Below, piece by piece: positions 1-31,282 of a stretch of DNA of 64,000 nt (its first letter is position 1; each line of letters starts with the position of its first letter). The stretch covers positions 416,001-480,000 of the forward strand of contig CAVRVY010000002.1 of assembly GCA_963724765.1 (NCBI GenBank), in the 5' to 3' direction. Position numbers and translations under genes: made by a program. This DNA comes from an uncultured delta proteobacterium. Its GTDB lineage: Bacteria > Desulfobacterota > Binatia > Binatales > Binataceae. The notes under the pieces were generated by a model. The model ran no database searches, was not told the origin of the DNA, and worked only from the letters and a program-made list of their open reading frames with translations.

Positions 1-981
1 CCGTAGCTGCAGCAGAAAGGTTCCAGGAAAAACCCATGACGACACCGGTGGCCAGGGCAAGCTCGAAAAGGAATCACCGAGCCGCAAAGCCAGGGGATGG
101 GCCGCTGGATTGGTAACGATTGCCGCGGTGGTGTAGCCGCGTCGCCGCAGTATCCAGGCGATGTTGTCTTCGCGCAGGCGGTGAGGAACATGCCCATAGA
201 GCTGGAACACCCGATTCGTCAGCGGGTACTGGCCGGTCAACAGCGACGCGACGGCCGGCGTGGTGAAATCCGAGGTCGAGACGAAATTGACGAAATTGTA
301 GCTGCGATGGGCGAGCCGCTCAAATTGCGGAGTGGTCGGGAGTCTGTAGCCGTATAGTGACATGTCCTGCGCCGTCAGCGCATCGAAGCTGATCAGCACG
401 ACGTTAGGCTTCGCCGATGGGTCTGGGGCAAAGCGCTGCGCCTGCGGCATCGGATCAAAGCTGCGCCAGCCAAAGCCCCCGGTAAGTAAGGGAATCAGCA
501 GGAGCGGACAAACCGCCAGTACTATTTGCGCCGATTGGTTGAGCCGGTTGAACAGCGCGAAAGCACGCTGCCAACCGAAGAATGTAGGCAGGGCGATAGC
601 CGCGAGGACGAGCGCCGCCTGCAGGCCGGCGCTCGCGACCCGGCCGATGATCACATTGAGAGGAAACAGCAACGCAAGGCCGCACAAGGTGGCGCTTGCG
701 AGGGCAAGGAAGCCCGCACAATTGATATCGGCCCGATCATTCTCTGGTTTGCGCCACAGCTTGAGCGCATCACCCGCCGAAAGGATGAGCGCGAGAAATG
801 CTGCGCACAAGACTTCGAGCAAAAGAACCGCCGAAATCTCCAGCGCCAGTTCCGCGACCGCACCCCTAACCGAGAGAAGATAGGACCACGGACGCAACTG
901 CTGGATCGCGAGAACCGGCGCGAAAAAAAGGACCGTTGGTACTGCGAGGCCGCGAAACAGCAACCACCACCGCCCGCCCAT
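1..981 (-). CDS. Membrane-anchored sulfatase/alkaline-phosphatase-superfamily protein (runs off left edge)
   Basis: Not in ORF track. Hand translation from ATG 981: MGGRWWLLFRG..., several TM helices, then PNVVLISFDAL..DMSLYGY..PTTP and SDFTTPAVASLLTG.YP..RGYTTAA, the alkaline-phosphatase/sulfatase core motifs. Confidence 0.8.
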   Translation of the reverse strand, partial: MGGRWWLLFRGLAVPTVLFFAPVLAIQQLRPWSYLLSVRGAVAELALEISAVLLLEVLCAAFLALILSAGDALKLWRKPENDRADINCAGFLALASATLCGLALLFPLNVIIGRVASAGLQAALVLAAIALPTFFGWQRAFALFNRLNQSAQIVLAVCPLLLIPLLTGGFGWRSFDPMPQAQRFAPDPSAKPNVVLISFDALTAQDMSLYGYRLPTTPQFERLAHRSYNFVNFVSTSDFTTPAVASLLTGQYPLTNRVFQLYGHVPHRLREDNIAWILRRRGYTTAAIVTNPAAHPLALRLGDSFSSLPWPPVSSWVFPGTFLLQLR

Positions 982-987
982 GATGGT

Positions 988-1296
988 TTATTTTCCGGCC
1001 TCATGCGAAGCGCCGCGCGAATCGATTTTTTTCCATCGGTCACGAATGGATTTGGCGAATCTTCTTATTTCCTTACGGCAGTAGAAGACAAACGAAAGGA
1101 GAATCGCTGAGAGCGGGGCTAGAATTTGCGACAGGAATCCCCCTGCGTTGGGGTCAATGTAAGCCCAGCACTTGCCTCGCCAAAACAGCACAAGCGACAA
1201 CACGAGCGACAACACGAGTAACGACCTGAGTGACGACCTGAGGATGATCGCGTTTGCGCCGGTTACAGTCGCGGACGAGCGGCGCGCGTAGGGCAC
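988..1296 (-). CDS. Small membrane protein with AYIDPxxG motif
   Basis: Signal-like hydrophobic stretch, then WAYIDPNAGGFLSQILAPL, a TM helix and a basic tail. Stop lies just before the sulfatase start. Start codon uncertain (GTG 1296 chosen). Confidence 0.55.
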   Translation of the reverse strand: MPYARRSSATVTGANAIILRSSLRSLLVLSLVLSLVLFWRGKCWAYIDPNAGGFLSQILAPLSAILLSFVFYCRKEIRRFAKSIRDRWKKIDSRGASHEAGK

Positions 1297-1790
1297 GCCA
1301 CTCCCGCAGCGATAAGCGGGAGCTCCATCTCTTTGATGTTTTCGCGCCAACTTGCGCGGATATCCGCAGCGATTAACGGTACTTCCCTGCTCCACAGGCG
1401 TCATGGTTGCGGTTCTCCACCTAAGCGGCGACTGGTCCGAGACTGCAATGCTACTGCTCTTTCCGTCCACCTTGCTAGTGGACGCATCCTATCGCGCACA
1501 AGGTTCGTGGCTTCCTTGGCCCGGGATTTCCGTTTGAGTTCGAAAAAGATGACTCACCGCCGGGTGTTGGATCGATATGGGCGCGGGCGCATGCTATTCA
1601 ATTGCGCCGACACGCGGACCATTCATGGGCCTGCACAAAGGTTCGCAACCGTTAAGCGGGAAACGGCGCAAGAAAACGACGGGGGAAGTAGCGGATGACG
1701 TGGTGAGGATGTTGAGGGGTGCGATGACAGCGGCGAGAATGCGGCGGGAATGCGGGATTGACGCGCGGGTGACCACAGCGGTGACCATCA

Positions 1791-3110
1791 ATGGATGACG
1801 CGCAGGCGCGTCGCGAGGCGGCGGCGCCGGCCTCCGGCGGGGACGCGCCGGTTTCCGGCGGCGCGGCAAGTTTTCCGCGACCGCCGCGCGCGTATCTGTG
1901 GCAGTTGCTCGGGCTGCTAATCCCGGCGACGATTTTCGAAGGCTACGACATCACGATTTTCCATCTCTGCACGCCCGACATCGCCGCGACCTTTCACCTT
2001 GGCAACGAGGCGATCGGTTTGATCGCCTCGATCGTGCGCCTGGGCACGGTGATGTCATTCCTGGTGATCTCCTGTTCCGACCGCGTTGGGCGCAAGCCGG
2101 TCATCTCGGTGACAGTGTTGGGCTACGGCCTCTTCACCCTGTTTACGGGACTCTCGCGCGGGTTGGTCAGTTTCACGCTCTTCCAGAGCTGCTCGCAGGT
2201 GTTTCTGGCCAGCGAGTTCGGGATGGCGATCATCATTATCAGTGAGGAGTTTCCCGACGAGTTGCGCGGCCGGGCGATCGCGGGCTTTCACATGGCGGCG
2301 TTCGTTGGCGTCGCGGTGGCGGGCTCATTGTATGGCTACGTGGCCGAGTCGGCGTGGGGATGGCGCGGGATGTATCTGCTGGGGATCGCGCCGCTTCTGC
2401 TGGTGGCGTTTCTGCGGCAGTACGTGCGCGAGACCGCGCGCTTTCTCGCGCATCGCGCCTCGCTGACCGTGCATCACAACTGGCGCGAGAGCGTCCGCAC
2501 GCATATCAAGCTGTTTCGCGGACCCTACCGCGGACGCCTGCTGCTGGTTGCGCTGCTGGCCAACAGCGTCGGCTTCGTCGGCGGCCCGACGATTACCTAC
2601 TTCAGCCTCTTCGCCAAGCGTGACCATCACTGGACCTCGGCGCAGGTCGGCTCGGCGGTTATCGTGGCCTACCTGATGGCGACGGTGGGAACGATTCTGT
2701 GCGGATACCTGCTCGACCTGGTCGGGCGTCGGGTGACGACCAGCCTGTTCTACCTTGGCGCCGGAATTTCGATGGTGGTGCTGTTCCAGTCTTCGCGGCA
2801 CCACGCGATCCTGTTGGGGTTCATGGCGACGATGTTCGCCTACCAGGGCGCGCGCACCGCGACCTCGGCCTTGTCGGCGGAACTGTTTCCCACCGAGATT
2901 CGGGCGGCCGGCTACAGCAGCACTATCCAGACCCTGGGGCAGTTGGCCTGGTTCATCAGCCCGGTGCTGGTCGGGACGATGTCGCTGGTCGTAGGCGGAT
3001 TGGGCAACGCGGCGTCGTTGTGCGCGATAGGGCCGCTGCTCGGCGCGCTGTTGATCCTGCTTTACGCGCCGGAAACGCGCGGCAAAACGCTCGAGGAGAT
3101 GGCGCTCTAG
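1791..3110 (+). CDS. MFS transporter (sugar/aromatic acid-type)
   Basis: ~12 TM segments; SDRVGRKP motif A, EEFPDELRG, ELFPTEIRA, PETRGKTLEE. Confidence 0.9.
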   Translation: MDDAQARREAAAPASGGDAPVSGGAASFPRPPRAYLWQLLGLLIPATIFEGYDITIFHLCTPDIAATFHLGNEAIGLIASIVRLGTVMSFLVISCSDRVGRKPVISVTVLGYGLFTLFTGLSRGLVSFTLFQSCSQVFLASEFGMAIIIISEEFPDELRGRAIAGFHMAAFVGVAVAGSLYGYVAESAWGWRGMYLLGIAPLLLVAFLRQYVRETARFLAHRASLTVHHNWRESVRTHIKLFRGPYRGRLLLVALLANSVGFVGGPTITYFSLFAKRDHHWTSAQVGSAVIVAYLMATVGTILCGYLLDLVGRRVTTSLFYLGAGISMVVLFQSSRHHAILLGFMATMFAYQGARTATSALSAELFPTEIRAAGYSSTIQTLGQLAWFISPVLVGTMSLVVGGLGNAASLCAIGPLLGALLILLYAPETRGKTLEEMAL

Positions 3111-3240
3111 TTTGGACCCACACTCGTGCCTGGGGTAGGGTGGAGTTGCCGAGAGACAATTTCTGGTCAGACTAACGGGGTTTCGCTAAGATTTCGTTCG
3201 AGTCTCCATCTTTTGGCGTTAGAGCGGAGTCAAAATAGAA

Positions 3241-23436: not shown

Positions 23437-24384
23437 ATGAAGAGTAAGTGGACAACCCTTATAGCGGCATTTTTTGGTCTTTCGGTCGGGCTTGTCTTAA
23501 TGGGCTCGCAGGTCGCTTGGGCCAAGGTCGCTCGTCCGTTTGTGGGGGCAGTAGATCCCACGAATGTCTCCGGCTGCACGACGCTCAGCGGGAATGGCAC
23601 CATCTATCTGTTGACGCAGAACATCACTACTACTGGTACCGGCAACTGCATCGTTGTCAGCGGCCATGACGACACCCTGGATCTCCAGGGTTTCAATATC
23701 ACGGGACCTGGCGACTCCTCGAACGGAGATGGAATTAGGATTACGGGTAGCGAAAACGTGATTGAAGGTTTTAATGGCACCATCTCCGGGTTTGCGGTGG
23801 GCGTGTACGATGTCGGAGCGAACACCGCCGGCGATGGGATCAACGTCGAATCAAACACAGTCGGGCTGGAGATGGCCGGATCGGGCGAAGCAACGGAAAT
23901 TTGGACCAATTTTTCCGCGGACGGTAACAGCGAGCAGGGGGTCTACCTCAAAAGTTGTGGCGATGAGTGCAGCATTAGCGACTTCGACGCGTCGAATAAC
24001 GGCGCCGATGGCTTGCTCATAACGGGTTCGGAGGGACCGAGGATCAGTATCTTCACGGCGCTTGACAATGGCGGTGACGGCGTGCACGTAGGCTGCACGT
24101 CCGGTTGCGGCAGCAATTCCGAGGTCAAAGTCGGCGACGCGCCCATCGGGATTACGACTACGCCTGCGATTAGCGGAAACGCGGGTGACGGAGTTTTCCT
24201 GGATGCAAGCGAGTCGAGCAACCAGGACCAGGTCTACGTCATGAATTCGACTGGCAATGGCGGGATCGATCTACACGATGCGAGCAGCACGTGCGGCAAC
24301 AACCATTGGGTTCACAACAACTTCGGTACGTCCAAGGCCGGCTCTGTGACGAGTCCCAGCTGCATTCCGCTGAGCCCGTTCTGA
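23437..24384 (+). CDS. Secreted right-handed beta-helix repeat protein
   Basis: Signal peptide, LDLQGFNITG, repeated N..DG(V/I) rungs, Cys pairs, CGNNHW..NNF. Confidence 0.75.
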   Translation: MKSKWTTLIAAFFGLSVGLVLMGSQVAWAKVARPFVGAVDPTNVSGCTTLSGNGTIYLLTQNITTTGTGNCIVVSGHDDTLDLQGFNITGPGDSSNGDGIRITGSENVIEGFNGTISGFAVGVYDVGANTAGDGINVESNTVGLEMAGSGEATEIWTNFSADGNSEQGVYLKSCGDECSISDFDASNNGADGLLITGSEGPRISIFTALDNGGDGVHVGCTSGCGSNSEVKVGDAPIGITTTPAISGNAGDGVFLDASESSNQDQVYVMNSTGNGGIDLHDASSTCGNNHWVHNNFGTSKAGSVTSPSCIPLSPF

Positions 24385-24589: not shown

Positions 24590-25579
24590 CTAAAGCGCAG
24601 TGCGGCGAACGTTCAAGTCGCGCAGGATCGCCTCTCTCACATCGGGAAGCGCGGAAAATTCGTTGGGTACGATGAGGCGTTTGACCGGGACGCGCCCGGC
24701 GACGAAGGACAGAAAATGGAACTGACGCTTCAGCATCGCGCGGTCGTTAATGTCGAGCCGGTAGGCCGCTTTGACCAGCCCCATAAGCGCATCCCCGAAA
24801 GCGAGTTCCCGGATCACGATCCGATCTAAGCGTTTGCTCGAGCGCGAGCGCTTGAGCAAATAGACGCGCGCGAGGCGGCGCCTTGTCGAGCAGAAGTCGG
24901 CGCGTCGAGAGCGGTCTTGCCAGCGCGATTTCGTCGTATAGCCGGCGACTGGCTTCAGATTTCGTGAACTTGCGCCAAGTCCCCGCATCGAATCGTCCCA
25001 CAACCGCAAGCCCGGATAGCCGGGGAGCGCCATGATGGCAGGGCCCTTGGCCAGCGCCAGGCAATCATCGCAGACCAGCGGATACCCCGATAACACGAAG
25101 CTCGCGGCGAGCGTCGATTTACCCGAGCCTGCAGGACCTGTGAACGCGCAAACGCCCTTGGGCGTCGCGATGGCGGTAGCATGGAGCGCCTCACGTCCAC
25201 GCAGGTTTACTACCAGCGGAAGCACCTGGTCGATCAGGAGATGTCTGATGGTTTCGAGGCTGTGGTCGCGGTTGGCGTTGCAGCAGACTATCTGGCTCCC
25301 GGAGCGGTCAACGATAAAATCGGCAATATCAGGAAACGACAGTACATAGTCCTCCGCGGTGGTACCGTAGCGAAGCCACATCTTGCCGCCTGGCGGCCGC
25401 GAATGCAGGTACCATCGAGGATTGAGCCGCACGTGCCGAAATCGTCCGCCAAGAATCGCGCGAACGGTCGCCTTACGCGCCGGTGCCTGAAGAGCGGAAA
25501 ACTCCGCAAGCGGGAGGTCTGAAACTATTCGCAGCCCGTAGGCCTGCTGAGGAAAGTCCGGGATCTCGGTCTGCTCAGG
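24590..25579 (-). CDS. HPr-kinase-like lasso peptide kinase (start unresolved)
   Basis: LHATAI, Walker A GPAGSGKST, CDD, LRLW. The frame stays open upstream of the tracked GTG through AYGLRIVSDLPL up to a TGA at 25580-25582. Confidence 0.8.
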   Translation of the reverse strand, partial: PEQTEIPDFPQQAYGLRIVSDLPLAEFSALQAPARKATVRAILGGRFRHVRLNPRWYLHSRPPGGKMWLRYGTTAEDYVLSFPDIADFIVDRSGSQIVCCNANRDHSLETIRHLLIDQVLPLVVNLRGREALHATAIATPKGVCAFTGPAGSGKSTLAASFVLSGYPLVCDDCLALAKGPAIMALPGYPGLRLWDDSMRGLGASSRNLKPVAGYTTKSRWQDRSRRADFCSTRRRLARVYLLKRSRSSKRLDRIVIRELAFGDALMGLVKAAYRLDINDRAMLKRQFHFLSFVAGRVPVKRLIVPNEFSALPDVREAILRDLNVRRTAL

Positions 25580-25736
25580 TCAGCGATGGTTCGCGCCGAC
25601 CGGAAAATGTCCTGTTGAAACCACCCGATTTATCCTGCGGAGAAAAAACACGGCCCGCTTCTTTCCCAAAGGTCCGAAGCGGCCATAATTTCATCAACGC
25701 AACCAGCTGGTCGAGAATTGGAAGTCAGATTCGGGA

Positions 25737-25892
25737 TCAGACCATGCGAGACCTGCCGTCAAAAGGGGGAATACTACCACCCGACGATGTGAGTTTTGCC
25801 ACGTCGCCATACTCTACAAGGCGAGGACGGGCATAAGCTTTCTTGATGGGCCGTATTTCTGGCTTTTTGAGCTCTTTCTTGGCTTTAGTCAT
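25737..25892 (-). CDS. Lasso peptide precursor, 51 aa: MTKAKKELKKPEIRPIKKAYARPRLVEYGDVAKLTS-SGGSIPPFDGRSRMV
   Basis: Hand translated; absent from the ORF track. AGGAG RBS, leader motif YxxPxLxxxGxxxxxT, Thr at -2, acceptor Asp at core position 9; lies inside the RRE/cyclase/kinase cluster. Confidence 0.92.
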   Translation of the reverse strand: MTKAKKELKKPEIRPIKKAYARPRLVEYGDVAKLTSSGGSIPPFDGRSRMV

Positions 25893-25946
25893 GCTTGCTC
25901 CTGTAGCTCCGTTTGCAGCTCCTACTGCATTAAGGCAATGCGCCTC

Positions 25947-25975
25947 TTTATATAGAAGTATTCCGCGTCTTGCAA
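25947..25975 (-). promoter_or_regulatory. sigma70-type promoter for the precursor gene
   Basis: Minus strand TTGCAA-N17-TATAAA, ~55 bp upstream of the precursor ATG. Confidence 0.55.
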
Positions 25976-26062
25976 CCTGCGTAAAGCGCTCGTCAGTTAA
26001 TTTGTCCTTGTGTTACTTAGTCGTGAGATAACACGATATCAGAAGAGATAACTAGGGTCAAA

Positions 26063-27208
26063 TCAACCGCCGTCTGCGTCAGGGAGGATAATTTTGGCTA
26101 CGAATTCCGACGCTTTAGCCAACGAAGGGAAAAGATCCGGATGAATCCGGATCATTTCTCTTTCTATTTCCGACAGCGTGCGTGTTCCATTTGCCAAGTT
26201 GACCGCAGACCTTCGCGCCAAACCCCACTCCGACAACCGAGGCACAAAGTCCGGCCGTGTCTTAGCCAACTCCCGTGGCATCAGCACCGTACTCTTAAGC
26301 GTGGAATGTACAAACCGTGCCTTCTCCCTACTCTTGGTATCAAGAACCAGGACCTTCCAGCTAACGAGATTCTGGGTGGTGATAGCTGTGATCGTAATAT
26401 TCAGAAACTCTCCTTTCTTCAGCACGACAGGCTTCTCGATCGGAAAGAACACGGCAGACCGTTTGATCCGCTTCTTGCTGAAGGGCGAGTTGGTAATGAT
26501 GACGCCTGGCGTCAGCTCGGCAATGAACCAGCCGCTAAGACCGTGCATGATGCCGGCCGCTGAAACCCTGATCTCCGCTTTCGCCGTGAAATGTTCCGGT
26601 GTCAGGTCCGTGAGGTCGAAGGTGACGAGGTGGGCGGGTTCGCCCAGCATTCGGCGCGGGCGCTTCTCGCTCGGGTAAGCGAAGTTGAATGCAATGCTGC
26701 GTGCCGGCGACATCGTCAGCCCCGCATGTCTATGTTTCCAGAAGCCTGCGATGCGCCACATTTCGGGAAAATTCACTGGCGCGAGGAACAGCTCGAGGCG
26801 TCGAGGTATAGCACGGGCGCCCGGCTTGAGCAGACGCCGACGGACGTCGTTGAATATCTCGGGCATCCCGGCGCCGATTCCGAAATAGCCTAGCTGATCT
26901 GCGATCACGACGTCGGCCTTTTCGGGAAGCTTCACACGACCGGAGTTTTCGTGAATCCCAAAGGTACTTTGCCCGTAACCATTCGCGGCGGCTACGTCGC
27001 GGGCGATTTGGATCATCGGCGTCTGATCAACCTGGTATACTTTCGCGGCCCCCGCCTCCATCGCGAGCAGGCCAAGCACGCCTGTCCCACAGGCGAGGTC
27101 AAGCACGATGTCTCCAGGCTTGACCACCGCGTTAATCGCCCGTCGAAACGCTGACGTTCGGTACAGGTCGGAGAGATACAGGCGATGCTCGTCTAGCATC
27201 AGAGACAT
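26063..27208 (-). CDS. PRMT-fold class I SAM methyltransferase with C-terminal helical extension
   Basis: EH..YLSD..R..AF..AI, VLDLACGTG, AGA.KVY, LPEKADVVIAD, RRLLKPG..IP, then beta-barrel HGLSGWF..L, as in protein arginine methyltransferases. Confidence 0.8.
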   Translation of the reverse strand: MSLMLDEHRLYLSDLYRTSAFRRAINAVVKPGDIVLDLACGTGVLGLLAMEAGAAKVYQVDQTPMIQIARDVAAANGYGQSTFGIHENSGRVKLPEKADVVIADQLGYFGIGAGMPEIFNDVRRRLLKPGARAIPRRLELFLAPVNFPEMWRIAGFWKHRHAGLTMSPARSIAFNFAYPSEKRPRRMLGEPAHLVTFDLTDLTPEHFTAKAEIRVSAAGIMHGLSGWFIAELTPGVIITNSPFSKKRIKRSAVFFPIEKPVVLKKGEFLNITITAITTQNLVSWKVLVLDTKSREKARFVHSTLKSTVLMPRELAKTRPDFVPRLSEWGLARRSAVNLANGTRTLSEIEREMIRIHPDLFPSLAKASEFVAKIILPDADGG

Positions 27209-27245
27209 TTTGCCGGTTCCATTCCAGTTAGCTCTAACTTACTCG

Positions 27246-29195
27246 TCAGAAAGCCGCTGCCCTGGTTTCGGTTACGTGCTTGAATGGATCGCTGATACCC
27301 AGACACACCACGCTGAACCAGAGTTCGATCGCAAAGACACTCCATAGTTCCAAGACATAATCCATGTAAGAGGGATCGCGCCGGGAAAATGATTCGGCCA
27401 TCGAGCGGTAAAACTCGCGCACAACGACGCCATCGACCCATCCGTTTTTCACGACGTTTAGGCGATCGAACAGGCGCTCCCCTCCAAGCGCATTCACTGC
27501 CATGGGGAATAACTCCGTAAGGTCGGCCTTGTCCGACCGCAGTCGTAGTCGCTCCGGCAGGATTCCCCGCATCGAATTGCGCAGCACGAACTTGCTGACG
27601 CCGGGCCTGAATCGTTGATCAGTAGGTATGGCGTAGGCGAACTCGAGTATCCGACGGTCCAGGAAAGGATTGCGTCCCTCCATTCGAAAGCCCGCAGTCC
27701 AGCGGGCGTCCATCTCCAGCGCATACGGAAGCCATCCGGATGAGTAGCATAGATACAACTTCTGCTGCGTGACGGTGCGGCAGTGGGGCACGGGCGGCCT
27801 CGTGGTCAGCCGCTCCAGAAGTCCCGTCCTGGCCGCGAACTCGGGTGTAATGAACGTGGGAAGCTCAGGCGGACGCAGCCATGGCCTGAGCGCGGTCTTG
27901 AGACCGTTCGGCATGAGCGGAAGGACTCCCCACCGCGCCAGGGCTTTAGCATAGCCGGGGAAGGGCGCGAACCCATTCAATGGCTGTCGATCGCTCCGCA
28001 TCATCCGCACCAGCGCCACGATGCGAAGCTGCCTCAGCAAGTCTGCGTAGGCAGCGTACGTTGCGCCGAACCATTCGTCGCCACCTAACCCGCTCAGCCT
28101 GACTCTAAGGTCGTTGCGATGGCCAAGGAGCGGCGTGTAATCGGCGCACACAGCATTGGGAGAATCCGGGAGGTCCAGGTAATGCGCTACTTGGGCGATG
28201 AGTTGGTCCAGCGGAGGCATTCCGGGAGCAAGATAGGTATGGCGATGAGGATACTTACTCAATACCTCTTCGACGTACTGAGTTTCGGCGGCAGGGCCGG
28301 ACTCGAAGCGAACCGAGAAGGTTTCAAAACTTGGGAGTTGCACTTTGCCGTCGTGGAGAAATTGTTCGGTAACACAGACTATGGACGAAGAATCAAGGCC
28401 GCCGCTCAGCTCCGAGGCAACTCCTTTGTTACTGCGAAGGTGGGATCGCATTACCTTCTTGAACAGCGAAAGAAAATGCTCGGAGTATTCGTCGTCGCTG
28501 CGATAGGTAATCTCCCGCGAGGCATCCAGATCGTGGTAGCGGCGGCATTCAACGCCGCGCGCGCTCACGCTGAGATGGTGCGCCGGCGCGAGGCGGCGGA
28601 TACCTTCGAAGAGCGTCTCCTCGCGGTCAACCGGAAGCCTCACTAGCATGTCGGCTATAGCCCGCTCGTTCGGCTTTCGTACGACCCTTGGATCCTGAAA
28701 CAGTTGATGAAGCTCCGAGGCGCACAGAAAGAATCCCGGACCATCGAAGTAGTAGAAGCCCTTTACTCCCAAAGGATCGCGGGCACAAAAAAGTGTCCGC
28801 TTCGATGGGTCCCACAATGCAAACGCGAAGTCGCCTATGATCCTTGTCGGGGCGTCCGCGGCCCAACACTGCCAGGCCCGCAGGACGATCTCGGCGTCCG
28901 TGCCCGTGCGAACGCGATGGCCCCGAGAATTAAGCTCGGCCAGGAGTTCGTCGCGGTTATCCACCCGCCCGTCCATCGATAGAACGAGTCCGCTGGTTTC
29001 GTCCACGAACGGGCTGGTCTCGGCAGCAGCTTCGGGCGTGGTCTGAAGCTTTGCATGCCCAAGAGCGATATTGCCGTTGCTCCATACGCCAGAGCCGTCA
29101 ATCGAGCAATACGGAATGGCAGCAATCATCCGCTCGACAGTCGAGCGGTCCGCTGGAGCCCCGTCCCACTGATATAGGGCCGCGACGCCACTCAT
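27246..29195 (-). CDS. Lasso cyclase (asparagine synthetase-like)
   Basis: N-terminal MSG lacks the Ntn catalytic Cys; GDFAFALWD, ARD.LG, PP-loop ELSGGLDSS, LSGLGGDE, PFLD, KFVLR; flanked by RRE and precursor. Confidence 0.88.
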   Translation of the reverse strand: MSGVAALYQWDGAPADRSTVERMIAAIPYCSIDGSGVWSNGNIALGHAKLQTTPEAAAETSPFVDETSGLVLSMDGRVDNRDELLAELNSRGHRVRTGTDAEIVLRAWQCWAADAPTRIIGDFAFALWDPSKRTLFCARDPLGVKGFYYFDGPGFFLCASELHQLFQDPRVVRKPNERAIADMLVRLPVDREETLFEGIRRLAPAHHLSVSARGVECRRYHDLDASREITYRSDDEYSEHFLSLFKKVMRSHLRSNKGVASELSGGLDSSSIVCVTEQFLHDGKVQLPSFETFSVRFESGPAAETQYVEEVLSKYPHRHTYLAPGMPPLDQLIAQVAHYLDLPDSPNAVCADYTPLLGHRNDLRVRLSGLGGDEWFGATYAAYADLLRQLRIVALVRMMRSDRQPLNGFAPFPGYAKALARWGVLPLMPNGLKTALRPWLRPPELPTFITPEFAARTGLLERLTTRPPVPHCRTVTQQKLYLCYSSGWLPYALEMDARWTAGFRMEGRNPFLDRRILEFAYAIPTDQRFRPGVSKFVLRNSMRGILPERLRLRSDKADLTELFPMAVNALGGERLFDRLNVVKNGWVDGVVVREFYRSMAESFSRRDPSYMDYVLELWSVFAIELWFSVVCLGISDPFKHVTETRAAAF

Positions 29196-29241
29196 CAGAT
29201 CGAAGTGCCGAGGTGACGGCCCGGGGCCTTCGGTTTTGGTC

Positions 29242-29526
29242 TCACCGCAAGTCGCTTTTGGATTCAGCTATCAGTTGCACGAGTCTCTTTTCGACAAGTT
29301 GATCCAAGAGCTTGTCGAGGTCGTGCCGTAGTTCATCGGGCTCGACGTCGAAGTCCCGCTGGAGCGATTCCAAGGTCTTTTCCATGGAACCGTGTTCGAC
29401 GAGTTCACGCCATATCTGGCCACCCGAGCCGTCAAGGCCGAAGTAGAGACCCGTTTCGAGGTTCAGGATGACCACGTCGCCGCCGACATCCTGCCATACG
29501 ACGCCATCGCTGATTTCGACGCGCAT
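29242..29526 (-). CDS. PqqD-family RiPP recognition element (lasso B1/E)
   Basis: VGGDVVILNL..G.YFGLD..G..IW..L, FDVE...L..DL..LL..L; 94 aa. Confidence 0.9.
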   Translation of the reverse strand: MRVEISDGVVWQDVGGDVVILNLETGLYFGLDGSGGQIWRELVEHGSMEKTLESLQRDFDVEPDELRHDLDKLLDQLVEKRLVQLIAESKSDLR

Positions 29527-30478
29527 CGAGCTTTCCTTTCGAATGGCGCGGACCGTTGCCTCCCGCCCAGACACCAGCAAAGCAATGTAGAACTTCTCTT
29601 TCCCTGCGGTCGCTGAAGCAATTTTCGCCGTGCAGGCTATCATTTCTCCTGCGAATCCGCGATGGGCGGTTCCTCACCGTGAACCCGAAGAGCCGCGAGC
29701 TGGGCTGCGTGCGGCACCTCGCTCACCTGCGCCCGGCCGTCCCTGAATCTTTGATTTTCTCGCCCTTCGGATCGAGCCGTAAGTGTGCCGCGACCAAGCT
29801 GTCCGCGCAAAAATTCACTGGTTATCTTTTTTTGACGATAGTTGGGAAACTGCTCCCAGCTTTGGCGCTAATATTAGCTGATTTCGTGAGCCATATTATT
29901 GAAAAATAGCGAAAATTGAGCCTCAAAACCGATAAAAAGAGCGATAAGGTTCATTTGCGAAGCTTGCTCCATACTTGCCAAATACTATCAATAAGCCATT
30001 AAAGCTCGCATATTCGACATATTCGAGCGTCGTTCAGATGAGGAACAGGCCCGCGCGCGAAGCTCTACCATAGTTGGGTAAATGTAGCTAAGCTCGGCCT
30101 GTGTGAAGAGCGTGATTGCCGAGACAAAGAATGATGCGAATTGCCTCGATACTTCGCGATACCGCTGCCGAAGAGGGCATCGCATGAATGAGTCTATAGA
30201 TGGCGGTATGATCGTTCAAACAGGTGTTTGACAACAGCCTAGTTCGCTACGGCGATCCTCGACGAGCCTGCGTCATAGCCCACCGGGCGCAATAGCTGGA
30301 CGCTGATGGATGCTCTTGTATTTGCCACGATTGGCACGATTGGAATGACGCGGAACCGGGAGGACTCTGGTTGCGTTCCGCGCGGATCCGGTAGGCCGCC
30401 GACCAACAGCCGTGGTGAGTACGGACCATTTCCCGGTGGAGAGCCGCGGCGCGCTCTTCGCCTGTCGAGGACTGTTTT

Positions 30479-31282
30479 ATGGCAGGAGCTATCAACCCGT
30501 TGAATGAGGACCGCAGCCGGTTGGCCTGGCGAGTGCGCCAAGCCGGGGTACCGAGCGAGATTATCGACGAGCTCATCAACGACAACATTGTCGCGCGCTA
30601 TGCGCGGCGTTTCCGCCTCTTCCTGCAGGGAGCGCCGGCCGACGTCCTGATGATCATCATCAACGGTGTGGTCAAAGTGCATTGCGCGCAGCCTGACGGC
30701 CGGAGATTTCTGGTGGAACTGGCCGGCCCCGGCGACATAATTGGCTACGTCGACCGGATGGACATCAAGGGCCGGCATTGCCAGGCCTTCGAAGCGCAGG
30801 CCCTGACCAACTGCGCCGTTGCGCTGATCAGCCGCCAGCGCATCCTCAAGCTCCTCGGCGATTCCGATCACGCCACGCTGATCAGCCTGTTCGAGCGCCT
30901 CAACACGTTTTGGGGCTCGGTCGTGCATCGCTACGCCTCGCTGATGACGCTGTCGTATCGCGAGCGGTTGGAGGCGATGCTCACGGAGGTCGCGGCGCGG
31001 TTCGGCGTCAAGGAAGCGCGCGGCACTCTCTTGACGCTCGAGCTGGGCCACGACGATTGGGCCGAGATGATAGGCAGCTCGCGGCCGATGGTGAGCAGGC
31101 TTATCGCGGAGATGGTGCAAAACCGTTTACTCGCGCGCGAGGGCAAGCACTACATCCTGCTGGCGGACGGCGGCTCTGAGAAGCCGGCCCTTCCGATCTC
31201 GCGGATCGAAGCAGTACCGGTAAACGGTATTCCCTCGCGCAAGAACGGCGCGATCGTGCGGACGGCTCGCATTTCTCCCTGA
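30479..31282 (+). CDS. Crp/Fnr family transcriptional regulator
   Basis: G.VKV..GPGDIIG cNMP-type domain; RERL..L; HTH AEMIGSSRPMVSRL. Confidence 0.85.
   Translation: MAGAINPLNEDRSRLAWRVRQAGVPSEIIDELINDNIVARYARRFRLFLQGAPADVLMIIINGVVKVHCAQPDGRRFLVELAGPGDIIGYVDRMDIKGRHCQAFEAQALTNCAVALISRQRILKLLGDSDHATLISLFERLNTFWGSVVHRYASLMTLSYRERLEAMLTEVAARFGVKEARGTLLTLELGHDDWAEMIGSSRPMVSRLIAEMVQNRLLAREGKHYILLADGGSEKPALPISRIEAVPVNGIPSRKNGAIVRTARISP

Follow-up and report, generated by a model that had tools for sequence, protein, structure and literature searches.

We describe a lasso-peptide gene cluster in an uncultured delta proteobacterium (Binataceae) and, in particular, its methyltransferase, here called M, which has the predicted fold of a protein arginine methyltransferase (PRMT) and a substrate pocket unlike that of the arginine-modifying enzymes. 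The cluster lies in a stretch of 64,000 nucleotides (assembly GCA_963724765.1, contig CAVRVY010000002.1, positions 416,001 to 480,000 of the forward strand), which we call the window; coordinates given without a locus or contig name refer to it.

Gene content of the cluster

Five co-oriented genes occupy positions 24590-29643 of the minus strand: those of a PqqD-type recognition element (B1), a cyclase (C), the methyltransferase M, a precursor (A) and a P-loop protein (K). A reading made earlier from the letters alone (hereafter the sequence-only reading) had named the same set, that is, a recognition element, a cyclase without the N-terminal nucleophile (Ntn) Cys, a PRMT-like methyltransferase, a precursor and an HPr-kinase-like gene, and all five are recovered by profile matches.

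B1 (29242-29643, minus strand, with a likely start at an internal Met at 29526) is a recognition element (RRE) of the kind found in pathways for peptides (RiPPs) that are ribosomally synthesised and modified post-translationally. It matches PF05402 PqqD at 1.2e-14 and the lasso PqqD model NF033536 at 1.9e-13, under that model's cut-off of 80, and its homologues adjoin the cyclase in related loci. The cyclase (27246-29195, minus strand, 649 aa) is an asparagine-synthetase-like lasso macrolactam synthetase with matches to PF00733 (8e-40), GATase_7 (5e-27) and the lasso cyclase model NF033535 (7.8e-127; 424.5 bits, under the 525-bit cut-off of this cyanobacterial-type model). Its residue 2 is Ser, and the Ntn Cys is absent. 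It is the sole such gene in the genome at E<=1e-5, and the genome likewise has one M gene (26063-27208, minus strand, 381 aa).

The precursor gene (25737-25892, minus strand) encodes 51 residues followed by a stop. The precursor scores 22.6 bits against the lasso leader model NF033521, over its cut-off of 19, and its leader (25785-25892) carries the motif YxxPxLxxxGxxxxxTx, with Thr at position -2. The 15-residue core (25740-25784) is SGGSIPPFDGRSRMV, in which Ser1 and Asp9, the only acidic residue, are placed for ring formation and the tail reads GRSRMV, just as the sequence-only reading had it. Finally, K (24590-25579, minus strand) is an HPr-kinase-like P-loop protein; the open reading frame (ORF) finder starts it at a GTG at 25432 (24590-25432), and the conserved sequence reaches 25579.

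With the precursor, B1 and the cyclase all recognisable, the locus is a lasso-peptide gene cluster. It belongs to a conserved, uncharacterised type of system with the gene set B1-(B2)-C-M-A-K(-NT-ABC), in which B2 is a transglutaminase-like leader peptidase, NT an NTP_transf_5 gene and ABC an ATP-binding cassette exporter.

Linkage and distribution of the M family

A word-indexed search collected 291 homologues of M at E<=1e-3, mostly of 375-400 aa, which the sources name 'protein arginine N-methyltransferase 1', 'L11 methyltransferase' or similar. Linkage to lasso genes was counted within the DNA available around each locus. Among the genome loci with a full-length M, in which all three domains are matched, 21 of 22 have a cyclase, PqqD or K gene (cyclase 19, K 20, PqqD 18, B2 10), the exception being L038; the contigs of L015, L017 and L018 are ~4 kb long. 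For loci that match the PRMT core only, the corresponding figure is 7 of 21. Close metagenome relatives, many of them on short contigs, have lasso genes in 26 of 29 cases and a precursor in 24. The M family is large, is found in uncultured bacteria, and occurs almost always within lasso cassettes.

Titles of the M-bearing records mention Acidobacteriota, Nitrospirota, Rokubacteria, Acidimicrobiia and 'delta proteobacterium' metagenome-assembled genomes (MAGs), and the closest M proteins are named by their sources as Binataceae and Acidiferrales. In the lineage of the window the gene is patchy: 13 of 61 relatives, counting the window genome itself (G000), and 6 of 16 genomes of the same genus have it. 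Four metagenome runs of soil, peat and sediment, which belong to three studies, have contigs with exact pieces of the window locus.

Some loci of the family have unusual structures. On its 4-kb contig, L015 has a tandem pair of M genes followed by K (704-3176). In L003, L010 and L108 the cyclase gene is split into several frames, probably by indel errors of long-read assemblies, and broken genes in this family therefore need careful reading.

Fold and domains of M

In Pfam, M matches PrmA (1.5e-9) and PRMT_C (PF22528; 36.1 bits, over the cut-off of 27). An AlphaFold2 model built with 38 homologues has a mean pLDDT (predicted local distance difference test) of 91, and when this model is compared with the PDB using Foldseek, the top matches are all PRMTs (PRMT6, PRMT1, CARM1 and PRMT2), with E ~1e-25 and template modelling scores of 0.77-0.84, normalised on the target. 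The family profile of M finds PRMT2 in the PDB at 4e-44, spanning profile positions 8-278 only. The fold proposed in the sequence-only reading is thereby upheld: as modelled, residues 1-290 (26339-27208) form a Rossmann domain that binds S-adenosylmethionine (SAM) and a PRMT-type beta-barrel, with a remodelled substrate pocket. The SAM-binding positions (Asp37, the GTG at 41-43, Asp14 and Arg17) are invariant in alignment A1, and with these positions conserved the enzyme should be active.

Residues 296-381 (26066-26323) form a further domain, with a pLDDT of 82 and three main helices in a winged-helix-like arrangement. At E<=1e-3 its profile matches 1410 representative proteins, of which 469 remain at E<=1e-10. 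In 146 of the 150 matches listed, the domain stands at the C-terminal end, or close to it, of methyltransferases of ~380 aa or of shorter pieces; the others are P0163, P0225, P0233 and P0244. Judged from these matches, the C-terminal helical domain is a signature of the M family. P0163 has a weak NTP_transf_5 match. P0233 at first looks like a fusion of M and K; its linker is rich in Arg and Pro and unlike either protein, and it is probably a frame error. A search for longer M-containing proteins returned only an unrelated non-ribosomal peptide synthetase, which is weak evidence against fusions.

By eye, the C-terminal domain resembles a PqqD or RRE domain, an idea that stays unproven. The domain has no Pfam match at E<=10, hhalign against an alignment of 31 B1 sequences gives a probability of 0.3%, and Foldseek finds nothing at E<=1e-3. 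Its non-significant Foldseek matches include the methyltransferase Rv2067c (E 0.9), PqqD 3g2b at rank 2 (E 1.4, probability 0.63) and lasso B1 6jx3 at rank 33 (E 9.5). A complex prediction for M with the precursor gave no answer (score 0.01) and is counted neither way.

Peptide binding by M is so far a prediction, and none of these searches identified the C-terminal domain as an RRE. On a rival view the lasso peptide is no substrate of M, which would instead methylate a cellular protein or serve as a non-catalytic scaffold, being merely syntenic. We regard this as extremely improbable. M lies between or next to the cyclase and the precursor across phyla (Acidobacteriota, Nitrospirota, Rokubacteria, Acidimicrobiia and the 'delta proteobacteria' MAGs), its SAM motifs do not vary, and one residue of its pocket, residue 251, tracks a feature of the core peptide, as described below.

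The substrate pocket compared with arginine methyltransferases

In PRMTs, two Glu residues of the double-E loop hold the guanidinium group, and the THW loop and Met48 of PRMT1 are further signature positions. We placed the pocket residues of M by hidden Markov model (HMM) alignments to PRMT2 and PRMT6 together with an alignment of all the locus-encoded homologues. Asp104 falls on the first Glu, Ala113 on the second Glu, and Arg250 on the Trp of THW; Tyr11 occupies the position that we take to correspond to Met48 of PRMT1. The pocket of the window M thus consists of R9, Y11, D104-Q105, and R247-I-K-R250-S251 in place of THW. Arg9, Tyr11, Asp104 and Arg250 are invariant in alignment A1, and all 47 lasso-type M sequences, that of the window included, have D104, Q, A or N at position 105, and R250.

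These replacements distinguish the 47 lasso-linked, three-domain sequences from ten homologues that are not linked to lasso genes (L021, L022, L024, L026, L029, L030, L033, L036, L039 and L045). Position 9 is Arg in the lasso-linked sequences and variable in the others, and position 11 is Tyr or Phe in the former and Met or Leu in the latter. At positions 104-105, the first Glu of the double-E loop gives way to Asp-Gln, whereas the non-lasso homologues have Glu (Asp in three). The second Glu has no conserved counterpart in the lasso-linked group, which has Ala113, with position 112 being Gly in the window clade and Glu, Asp or Asn in distant members, whereas most of the non-lasso homologues have a second acidic pair. 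Finally, the THW loop is R-I-x-R, with Arg250 at the Trp position, as against T/S-H/S-W. The window M therefore has the PRMT fold and neither the double-E nor the THW signature.

Cognate core peptides and the case for arginine

Precursors were extracted from the loci by means of the leader motif, which yielded 41 distinct cores beside lasso-type M genes. We dropped one minus-strand match in L013 that lies inside a long ORF, and precursor frames that are not closed by a stop (L090). Arg is present in 13 of the 41 cores and absent from 28, and 16 have neither Arg nor Lys. The common features are of another kind: 39 cores contain Met and 25 contain Cys, 23 end in -CL, 35 have Cys or Met among their last three residues, and 30 have one of the two at position -2. 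Every core has a Ser or Thr among its first eight residues, and 36 have one in the tail. A C-terminal Ser is found in two cores only, both from L031, and the window core ends in Val. In L087, the core closest to that of the window, Arg11 is replaced by Met and Ser12 by Ala, and the tail is free of Ser and Thr.

The sequence-only reading had taken M for a true arginine N-methyltransferase acting on Arg11 and/or Arg13, with K phosphorylating Ser12, so that the product would be an Arg-methylated, Ser-phosphorylated lasso. The PRMT fold of M and the two Arg residues of the window core favour this, as does the fact that the nearest cores (L087, L110, L111 and L003) keep a basic residue before the Met of the tail. 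Nevertheless, the 28 cores without Arg belong to M enzymes that share the pocket residues of the window enzyme. The double-E and THW residues, which the non-lasso homologues keep, are replaced throughout the lasso clade, partly by Arg residues, and since Arg is also absent from most cores, arginine methylation is unsupported. The expected co-occurrence of M homologues with Arg-bearing cores fails at the counts given above. Ser12 fares no better as a phosphorylation site, in view of its replacement in L087, the five cores with neither Ser nor Thr in the tail, and the Val end of the window core. We therefore consider this reading very unlikely for the window.

A different situation is seen at L023 (9554-15410). 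Here, a PRMT homologue of canonical type (Glu104, an acidic pair and an S-W loop), which does not have the C-terminal domain, adjoins genes for PqqD, K, a cyclase and a precursor with three Arg in its core of 17 residues. Arg-methylated lasso peptides may thus exist elsewhere, and a true one might be found at L023 rather than in the window.

In the relatives, seven clusters with K and without M (L126, L127, L128, L129, L131, L133 and L135) have His-rich cores that mostly end in Gly, contain no Cys and have little Met. One same-genus genome, G014, has a His-rich precursor in a cluster that also has a paralogous M, and the contrast between Met/Cys-rich cores with M and His-rich cores without it is therefore only a lead.

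The probable methyl acceptor

We think that M is probably an enzyme dedicated to lasso tailoring whose target is not an Arg side chain. The most likely site of methylation is at or next to the C-terminus of the core, either the terminal carboxylate or a sulfur-bearing residue two places from the end. The only side-chain nucleophiles common to all the cores are the Ser or Thr of the ring region and the ring-forming acid; on the main chain, the C-terminal carboxylate is universal. The C-terminus is also where the cores, in other respects very diverse, are conserved best, being -CL or, in the window clade, Met followed by a hydrophobic residue. The invariant Arg9 and Arg250 in the former guanidinium pocket point to the C-terminal end or an anionic group, and so does the conservation of the core C-terminus combined with the behaviour of residue 251.

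Residue 251 was compared with the core ending in 47 pairs of M and core, leaving out M rows of under 300 residues or without a detected core. Arg251 occurs together with -CL in 25 pairs, neither occurs in 20 (residue 251 being Ser, Ala, Pro or Trp in these), Arg251 occurs without -CL in two (L004 and L016), and -CL never occurs without Arg251. On a tree built without the columns concerned, the two traits need at the fewest four and five changes. This covariation hints that M may act near the core C-terminus.

Several points weigh against this interpretation. The covariation amounts to only 3-4 independent contrasts, too few for a sign test to reach significance (median p 0.5). The acceptor is deduced by exclusion and from a homology-based placement of residues, and what the double-E loop, the THW loop and Met48 do is taken from general knowledge of PRMTs. 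No single side-chain acceptor is universal, since the cores of L004 and L099 have no Met and that of L004 has neither Met nor Cys; targets may therefore differ between subclades, and the window M could still use Arg11 or Arg13. The basic residue that the window core and its four nearest relatives keep before Met belongs here as well. In the window clade M is retained although the -CL ending is gone, a point against Cys S-methylation being the general reaction. Moreover, the system is perhaps not fully functional here, with B2 in trans, K without a canonical start, and the sub-cluster of G014 that is orthologous to the window cluster without K.

We did not adopt S-methylation of Cys or Met as the general reaction, the window clade being without Cys and two cores without Met. 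For the acceptor taken by itself, our tentative first choice is the C-terminal end, either as a carboxyl ester or as a sulfur residue at position -2. A phosphate placed by K ranks clearly below it and Arg lower still, and the considerable weight that remains goes to another acceptor or to none.

The kinase-like gene

A Walker A motif is present in K, whose similarity to HprK-related kinases is weak: TIGR04352 matches at 3e-6 with 26.5 bits against a cut-off of 200, PF07475 at E 0.049, and the Hpr(Ser) kinase structure 3tqf at E 0.025. Its nearest cluster in the language-model Atlas is 'putative HPr kinase/phosphorylase' (score 0.98).

In all relatives, a conserved N-terminal motif is found ~45 residues ahead of the place that corresponds to the ORF-finder start at 25432. 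The motif is present in frame in the window K too, upstream of that GTG, in a frame that opens at 25579, right after a stop codon at 25580-25582. The upstream stretch 25433-25582 contains no ATG, GTG or TTG in frame. A contig of the independent run X2 carries 25453-25667 unchanged, so that the missing start is not just an assembly slip. Either K begins at a rare codon, or its first 20-45 codons are gone; over ~322 residues its body, free of stops, shares 75-76% identity with relatives. By eye, a short stretch in another frame upstream of 25580 resembles the N-termini of relatives, which would suggest a frameshift, but BLASTP gave no support and tblastn only E 1.1, and we do not claim one.

The frequent company of K and M, with K in 20 of the 22 full-length M loci, suggests another order of events: K would phosphorylate a Ser or Thr and M would then methylate the phosphate to give a methyl phosphodiester, by analogy with the glycosylation of phosphate in pseudomycoidin. 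An anionic acceptor would suit the invariant Arg9 and Arg250 and the Arg251 of many members, a Ser or Thr is available in the ring region of all 41 cores, and a review, as far as its text was available to us, offers a precedent for a decorated lasso phosphate. The link between the two genes, however, consists of co-occurrence only. K is found in 25 of the 61 genomes and M in 13, and K-type lasso clusters without M are frequent in the same family. In the G014 sub-cluster orthologous to the window, M is present and K is missing from the interval that separates the precursor from the convergent neighbour gene. In the window, no canonical start precedes the conserved N-terminal motif of K, and the sole apparent fusion of M with K, P0233, looks like a frame error. 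On this evidence, methylation of a phosphate seems to us unlikely.

A leader peptidase on another contig

The window contains no transglutaminase-like leader peptidase. In the whole genome (5.4 Mb, 4 contigs), the sole match to PF13471 (7.2e-20) is at C1:90427-90768 on another contig, C1, in a row of genes for PqqD (2.8e-20), B2 (2.2e-20), NTP_transf_5 (2.4e-60) and an ABC exporter; neither a precursor nor a cyclase accompanies it. The NTP_transf_5 gene beside B2 (L002, 10348-11745, on contig C1 of G000) has a run of seven Ser-Gln-Thr-Ser repeats in its middle.

In G014, orthologues of the C1 genes and of the B1-C-M-A genes of the window adjoin on a single contig (phmmer E: B2 1.9e-78, NT 2.1e-195, ABC 0.0, M 4.5e-188). 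The order at this locus (L149, G014:C1:94000-113900) is PqqD, a paralogous M, PqqD, a 663-codon frame for a membrane protein, B2, cyclase, His-rich precursor, K, NT and ABC, directly followed by the B1-C-M-A orthologous to the window and then by a NosD-like gene. The paralogous M is 40% identical and has neither Arg9 nor Tyr11. Elsewhere the distance from B2 to M varies: it is 2.4 kb in G036 and ~900 kb in G009, in G005 the two are on different contigs, and in G001 (95% completeness) no B2 was found. We infer that the window cluster and the C1 locus are one system split in two, whose parts would cooperate.

The absence of B2 in cis and the missing start codon of K, which recurs in the contig of an independent run, could also mean that we see the remnant of a cluster, decaying or incomplete and yielding no mature product, in which M has been kept only since the loss is recent. 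The window core has indeed lost the -CL ending of the family, and M is patchy within the genus. In addition, a copy in the same genus (L123, G002:C7:521661-524199) has its M match in three pieces, one of which contains two TGA codons, and a K with an internal TGA; this copy is either decayed or poorly assembled. On the other hand, B1, C, M and A of the window are full-length and without internal stops, and the body of K is intact at the identity given above. The core type without -CL, with the same gene order, extends over a clade of 15 rows and so is a stable variant. Finally, the genome does have a B2, a single one with its own PqqD, NT and exporter, and in G014 these genes are contiguous with the orthologous cluster. 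A remnant is therefore, in our judgement, a rather unlikely explanation.

For genome mining the arrangement carries a caution: in this lineage, B2 can be hundreds of kilobases away or on another contig, and searches bounded by the cluster would call such systems incomplete.

Neighbouring genes and features

Convergent to K lies the gene of a secreted beta-helix protein of 315 aa (23437-24384, plus strand). It has no Pfam match, and its nearest Atlas cluster is 'NosD domain-containing protein' (score 0.97, Binatota), which gives a lead to a NosD-like function. In 15 related loci, as well as in L149 of G014, a homologue is likewise found convergent at this place. The gene is thus a conserved neighbour in the close subclade; as a member of the cluster it is a candidate only, and unproven.

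About 0.8 kb upstream of the cluster, on the opposite strand, is a Crp/Fnr-type regulator gene (30479-31282, plus strand). In its place, L083 has a sigma-54 activator-like gene beyond NT, read from the translation only. Since the two differ between loci, neither is a conserved partner.

Directly 3' of the precursor gene, a hairpin followed by a U-run (25643-25687, minus strand) is a weak candidate for an attenuating terminator before K. It appears in both the minimum free energy and the centroid structures, while the z-score of the 97-nt stretch (-1.33) is not better than shuffles. A scan for promoter and terminator consensus sequences performed no better than its own shuffles and did not pick up this hairpin.

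Proposed pathway and implications

The pathway that we envisage runs as follows. Judging from its family, the PqqD protein B1 would bind the 51-aa precursor through the YxxP leader. The leader would be removed by the transglutaminase-like peptidase encoded on contig C1 together with a second PqqD, NTP_transf_5 and the ABC exporter, and the cyclase would close a Ser1-Asp9 macrolactam around the six-residue tail. M, as a SAM-dependent descendant of the PRMT fold with a rebuilt pocket, would methylate the core at or near its C-terminus. We infer the action of M on the peptide, its acceptor, the order of the steps and the service of the peptidase in trans from the homologies and gene rows described above.

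If this is correct, the M family is a class of methyltransferase not yet linked to RiPPs, extending across a whole family of lasso clusters, and M is a natural example of a PRMT scaffold that has evolved a new acceptor specificity, away from arginine. There is demand for lasso peptides as stable scaffolds, and the range of possible constructs grows with every new tailoring enzyme. More doubtfully, we can picture a re-tooled PRMT-fold RiPP methyltransferase whose Arg-lined pocket reads the C-terminus of Met/Cys-rich lassos and installs a methylation new to this class (a carboxyl ester, a thioether or sulfonium, or a methyl phosphate), on peptides of uncultured soil and peat bacteria that may bind metals, handling copper, rather than act as antibiotics. 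The idea of copper handling comes from the Met/Cys-rich cores, from the His-rich cores of the sister clusters without M, and from the adjoining NosD-like protein, and such a role is speculative.

Comparison with known lasso systems and arginine methyltransferases

The sequence-only reading knew of no characterised lasso pathway with a PRMT-fold enzyme, and literature searches, in texts that were partly available, turned up none. In the full-text literature, no paper on a PRMT-type lasso enzyme or on such clusters was found, with supplements, such as the co-occurrence tables of lasso genome-mining studies, and subscription papers lying outside the scope of that search. RODEO is reportedly one genome-mining study with tables of this kind. 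The portions seen of three reviews (PMC8498205, 2021; PMC9266682, 2022; PMC13352647, 2026) list as lasso modifications C-terminal methyl esters (lassomycin, StspM), aspartimidylation of the protein isoaspartyl methyltransferase (PIMT) type, C-terminal Ser phosphorylation, phosphoglycosylation, citrullination and acetylation, as well as hydroxylation, epimerisation, halogenation, prenylation, cross-links and a second isopeptide bond. The only methylations in them are C-terminal O-methylation of the StspM/LasF type and PIMT-type aspartimidylation.

The paeninodin-type systems (PadeK, ThcoK, SyanK), as far as their descriptions could be consulted, are similar in having split B1 and B2, an Asn-synthetase-like cyclase, an HPr-kinase-like gene by the precursor, and NTP_transf_5 with an ABC exporter. 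Their kinases, and according to the review text seen the characterised lasso kinases generally, act on a C-terminal Ser, whereas the window core ends in Val and 39 of the 41 related cores do not end in Ser. There is also no PRMT-fold methyltransferase in those systems, and the window K is far under the cut-offs of the HprK models. The pseudomycoidin system, from the part of its description consulted, is again similar in combining an HprK-like kinase with an NTP_transf_5-type gene; it has no methyltransferase, however, and its acceptor is a C-terminal Ser, which the window core does not have.

Among the methyltransferases, the lassomycin and StspM/LasF enzymes resemble M in being SAM-dependent proteins of lasso clusters that perhaps act at the precursor C-terminus, which is the leading guess for M. 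StspM, however, was modelled on mitomycin 7-O-methyltransferase and has a His/Glu catalytic pair, and thus belongs to another fold family; this distinction is drawn from a partly consulted description rather than from sequence. The PIMT-type enzymes (LihM, TceM) provide a parallel for a repurposed protein-modifying methyltransferase that acts on a lasso peptide. In the accounts available in part, they are isoaspartyl O-methyltransferase homologues that act on a conserved Asp6 of the threaded peptide, whereas M has no match to PIMT-family Pfam models at E<=0.01.

With the eukaryotic type I PRMTs (PRMT1, PRMT2, PRMT6 and CARM1) and the canonical bacterial PRMT-like proteins, M shares the two-domain fold, GxGxG, the SAM contacts, and the H/D/R positions of the N-terminal helix. 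It differs from them in that the first Glu is Asp, the second Glu is absent in the window clade, THW is R-I-x-R, and Met is Tyr at position 11, and also in having an extra invariant Arg in the N-terminal helix, an added C-terminal domain of ~85 aa, and cognate peptides that mostly lack Arg. Set beside these systems, the cluster is a widespread, uncharacterised lasso-cluster variant whose PRMT-fold enzyme is re-specialised away from arginine.

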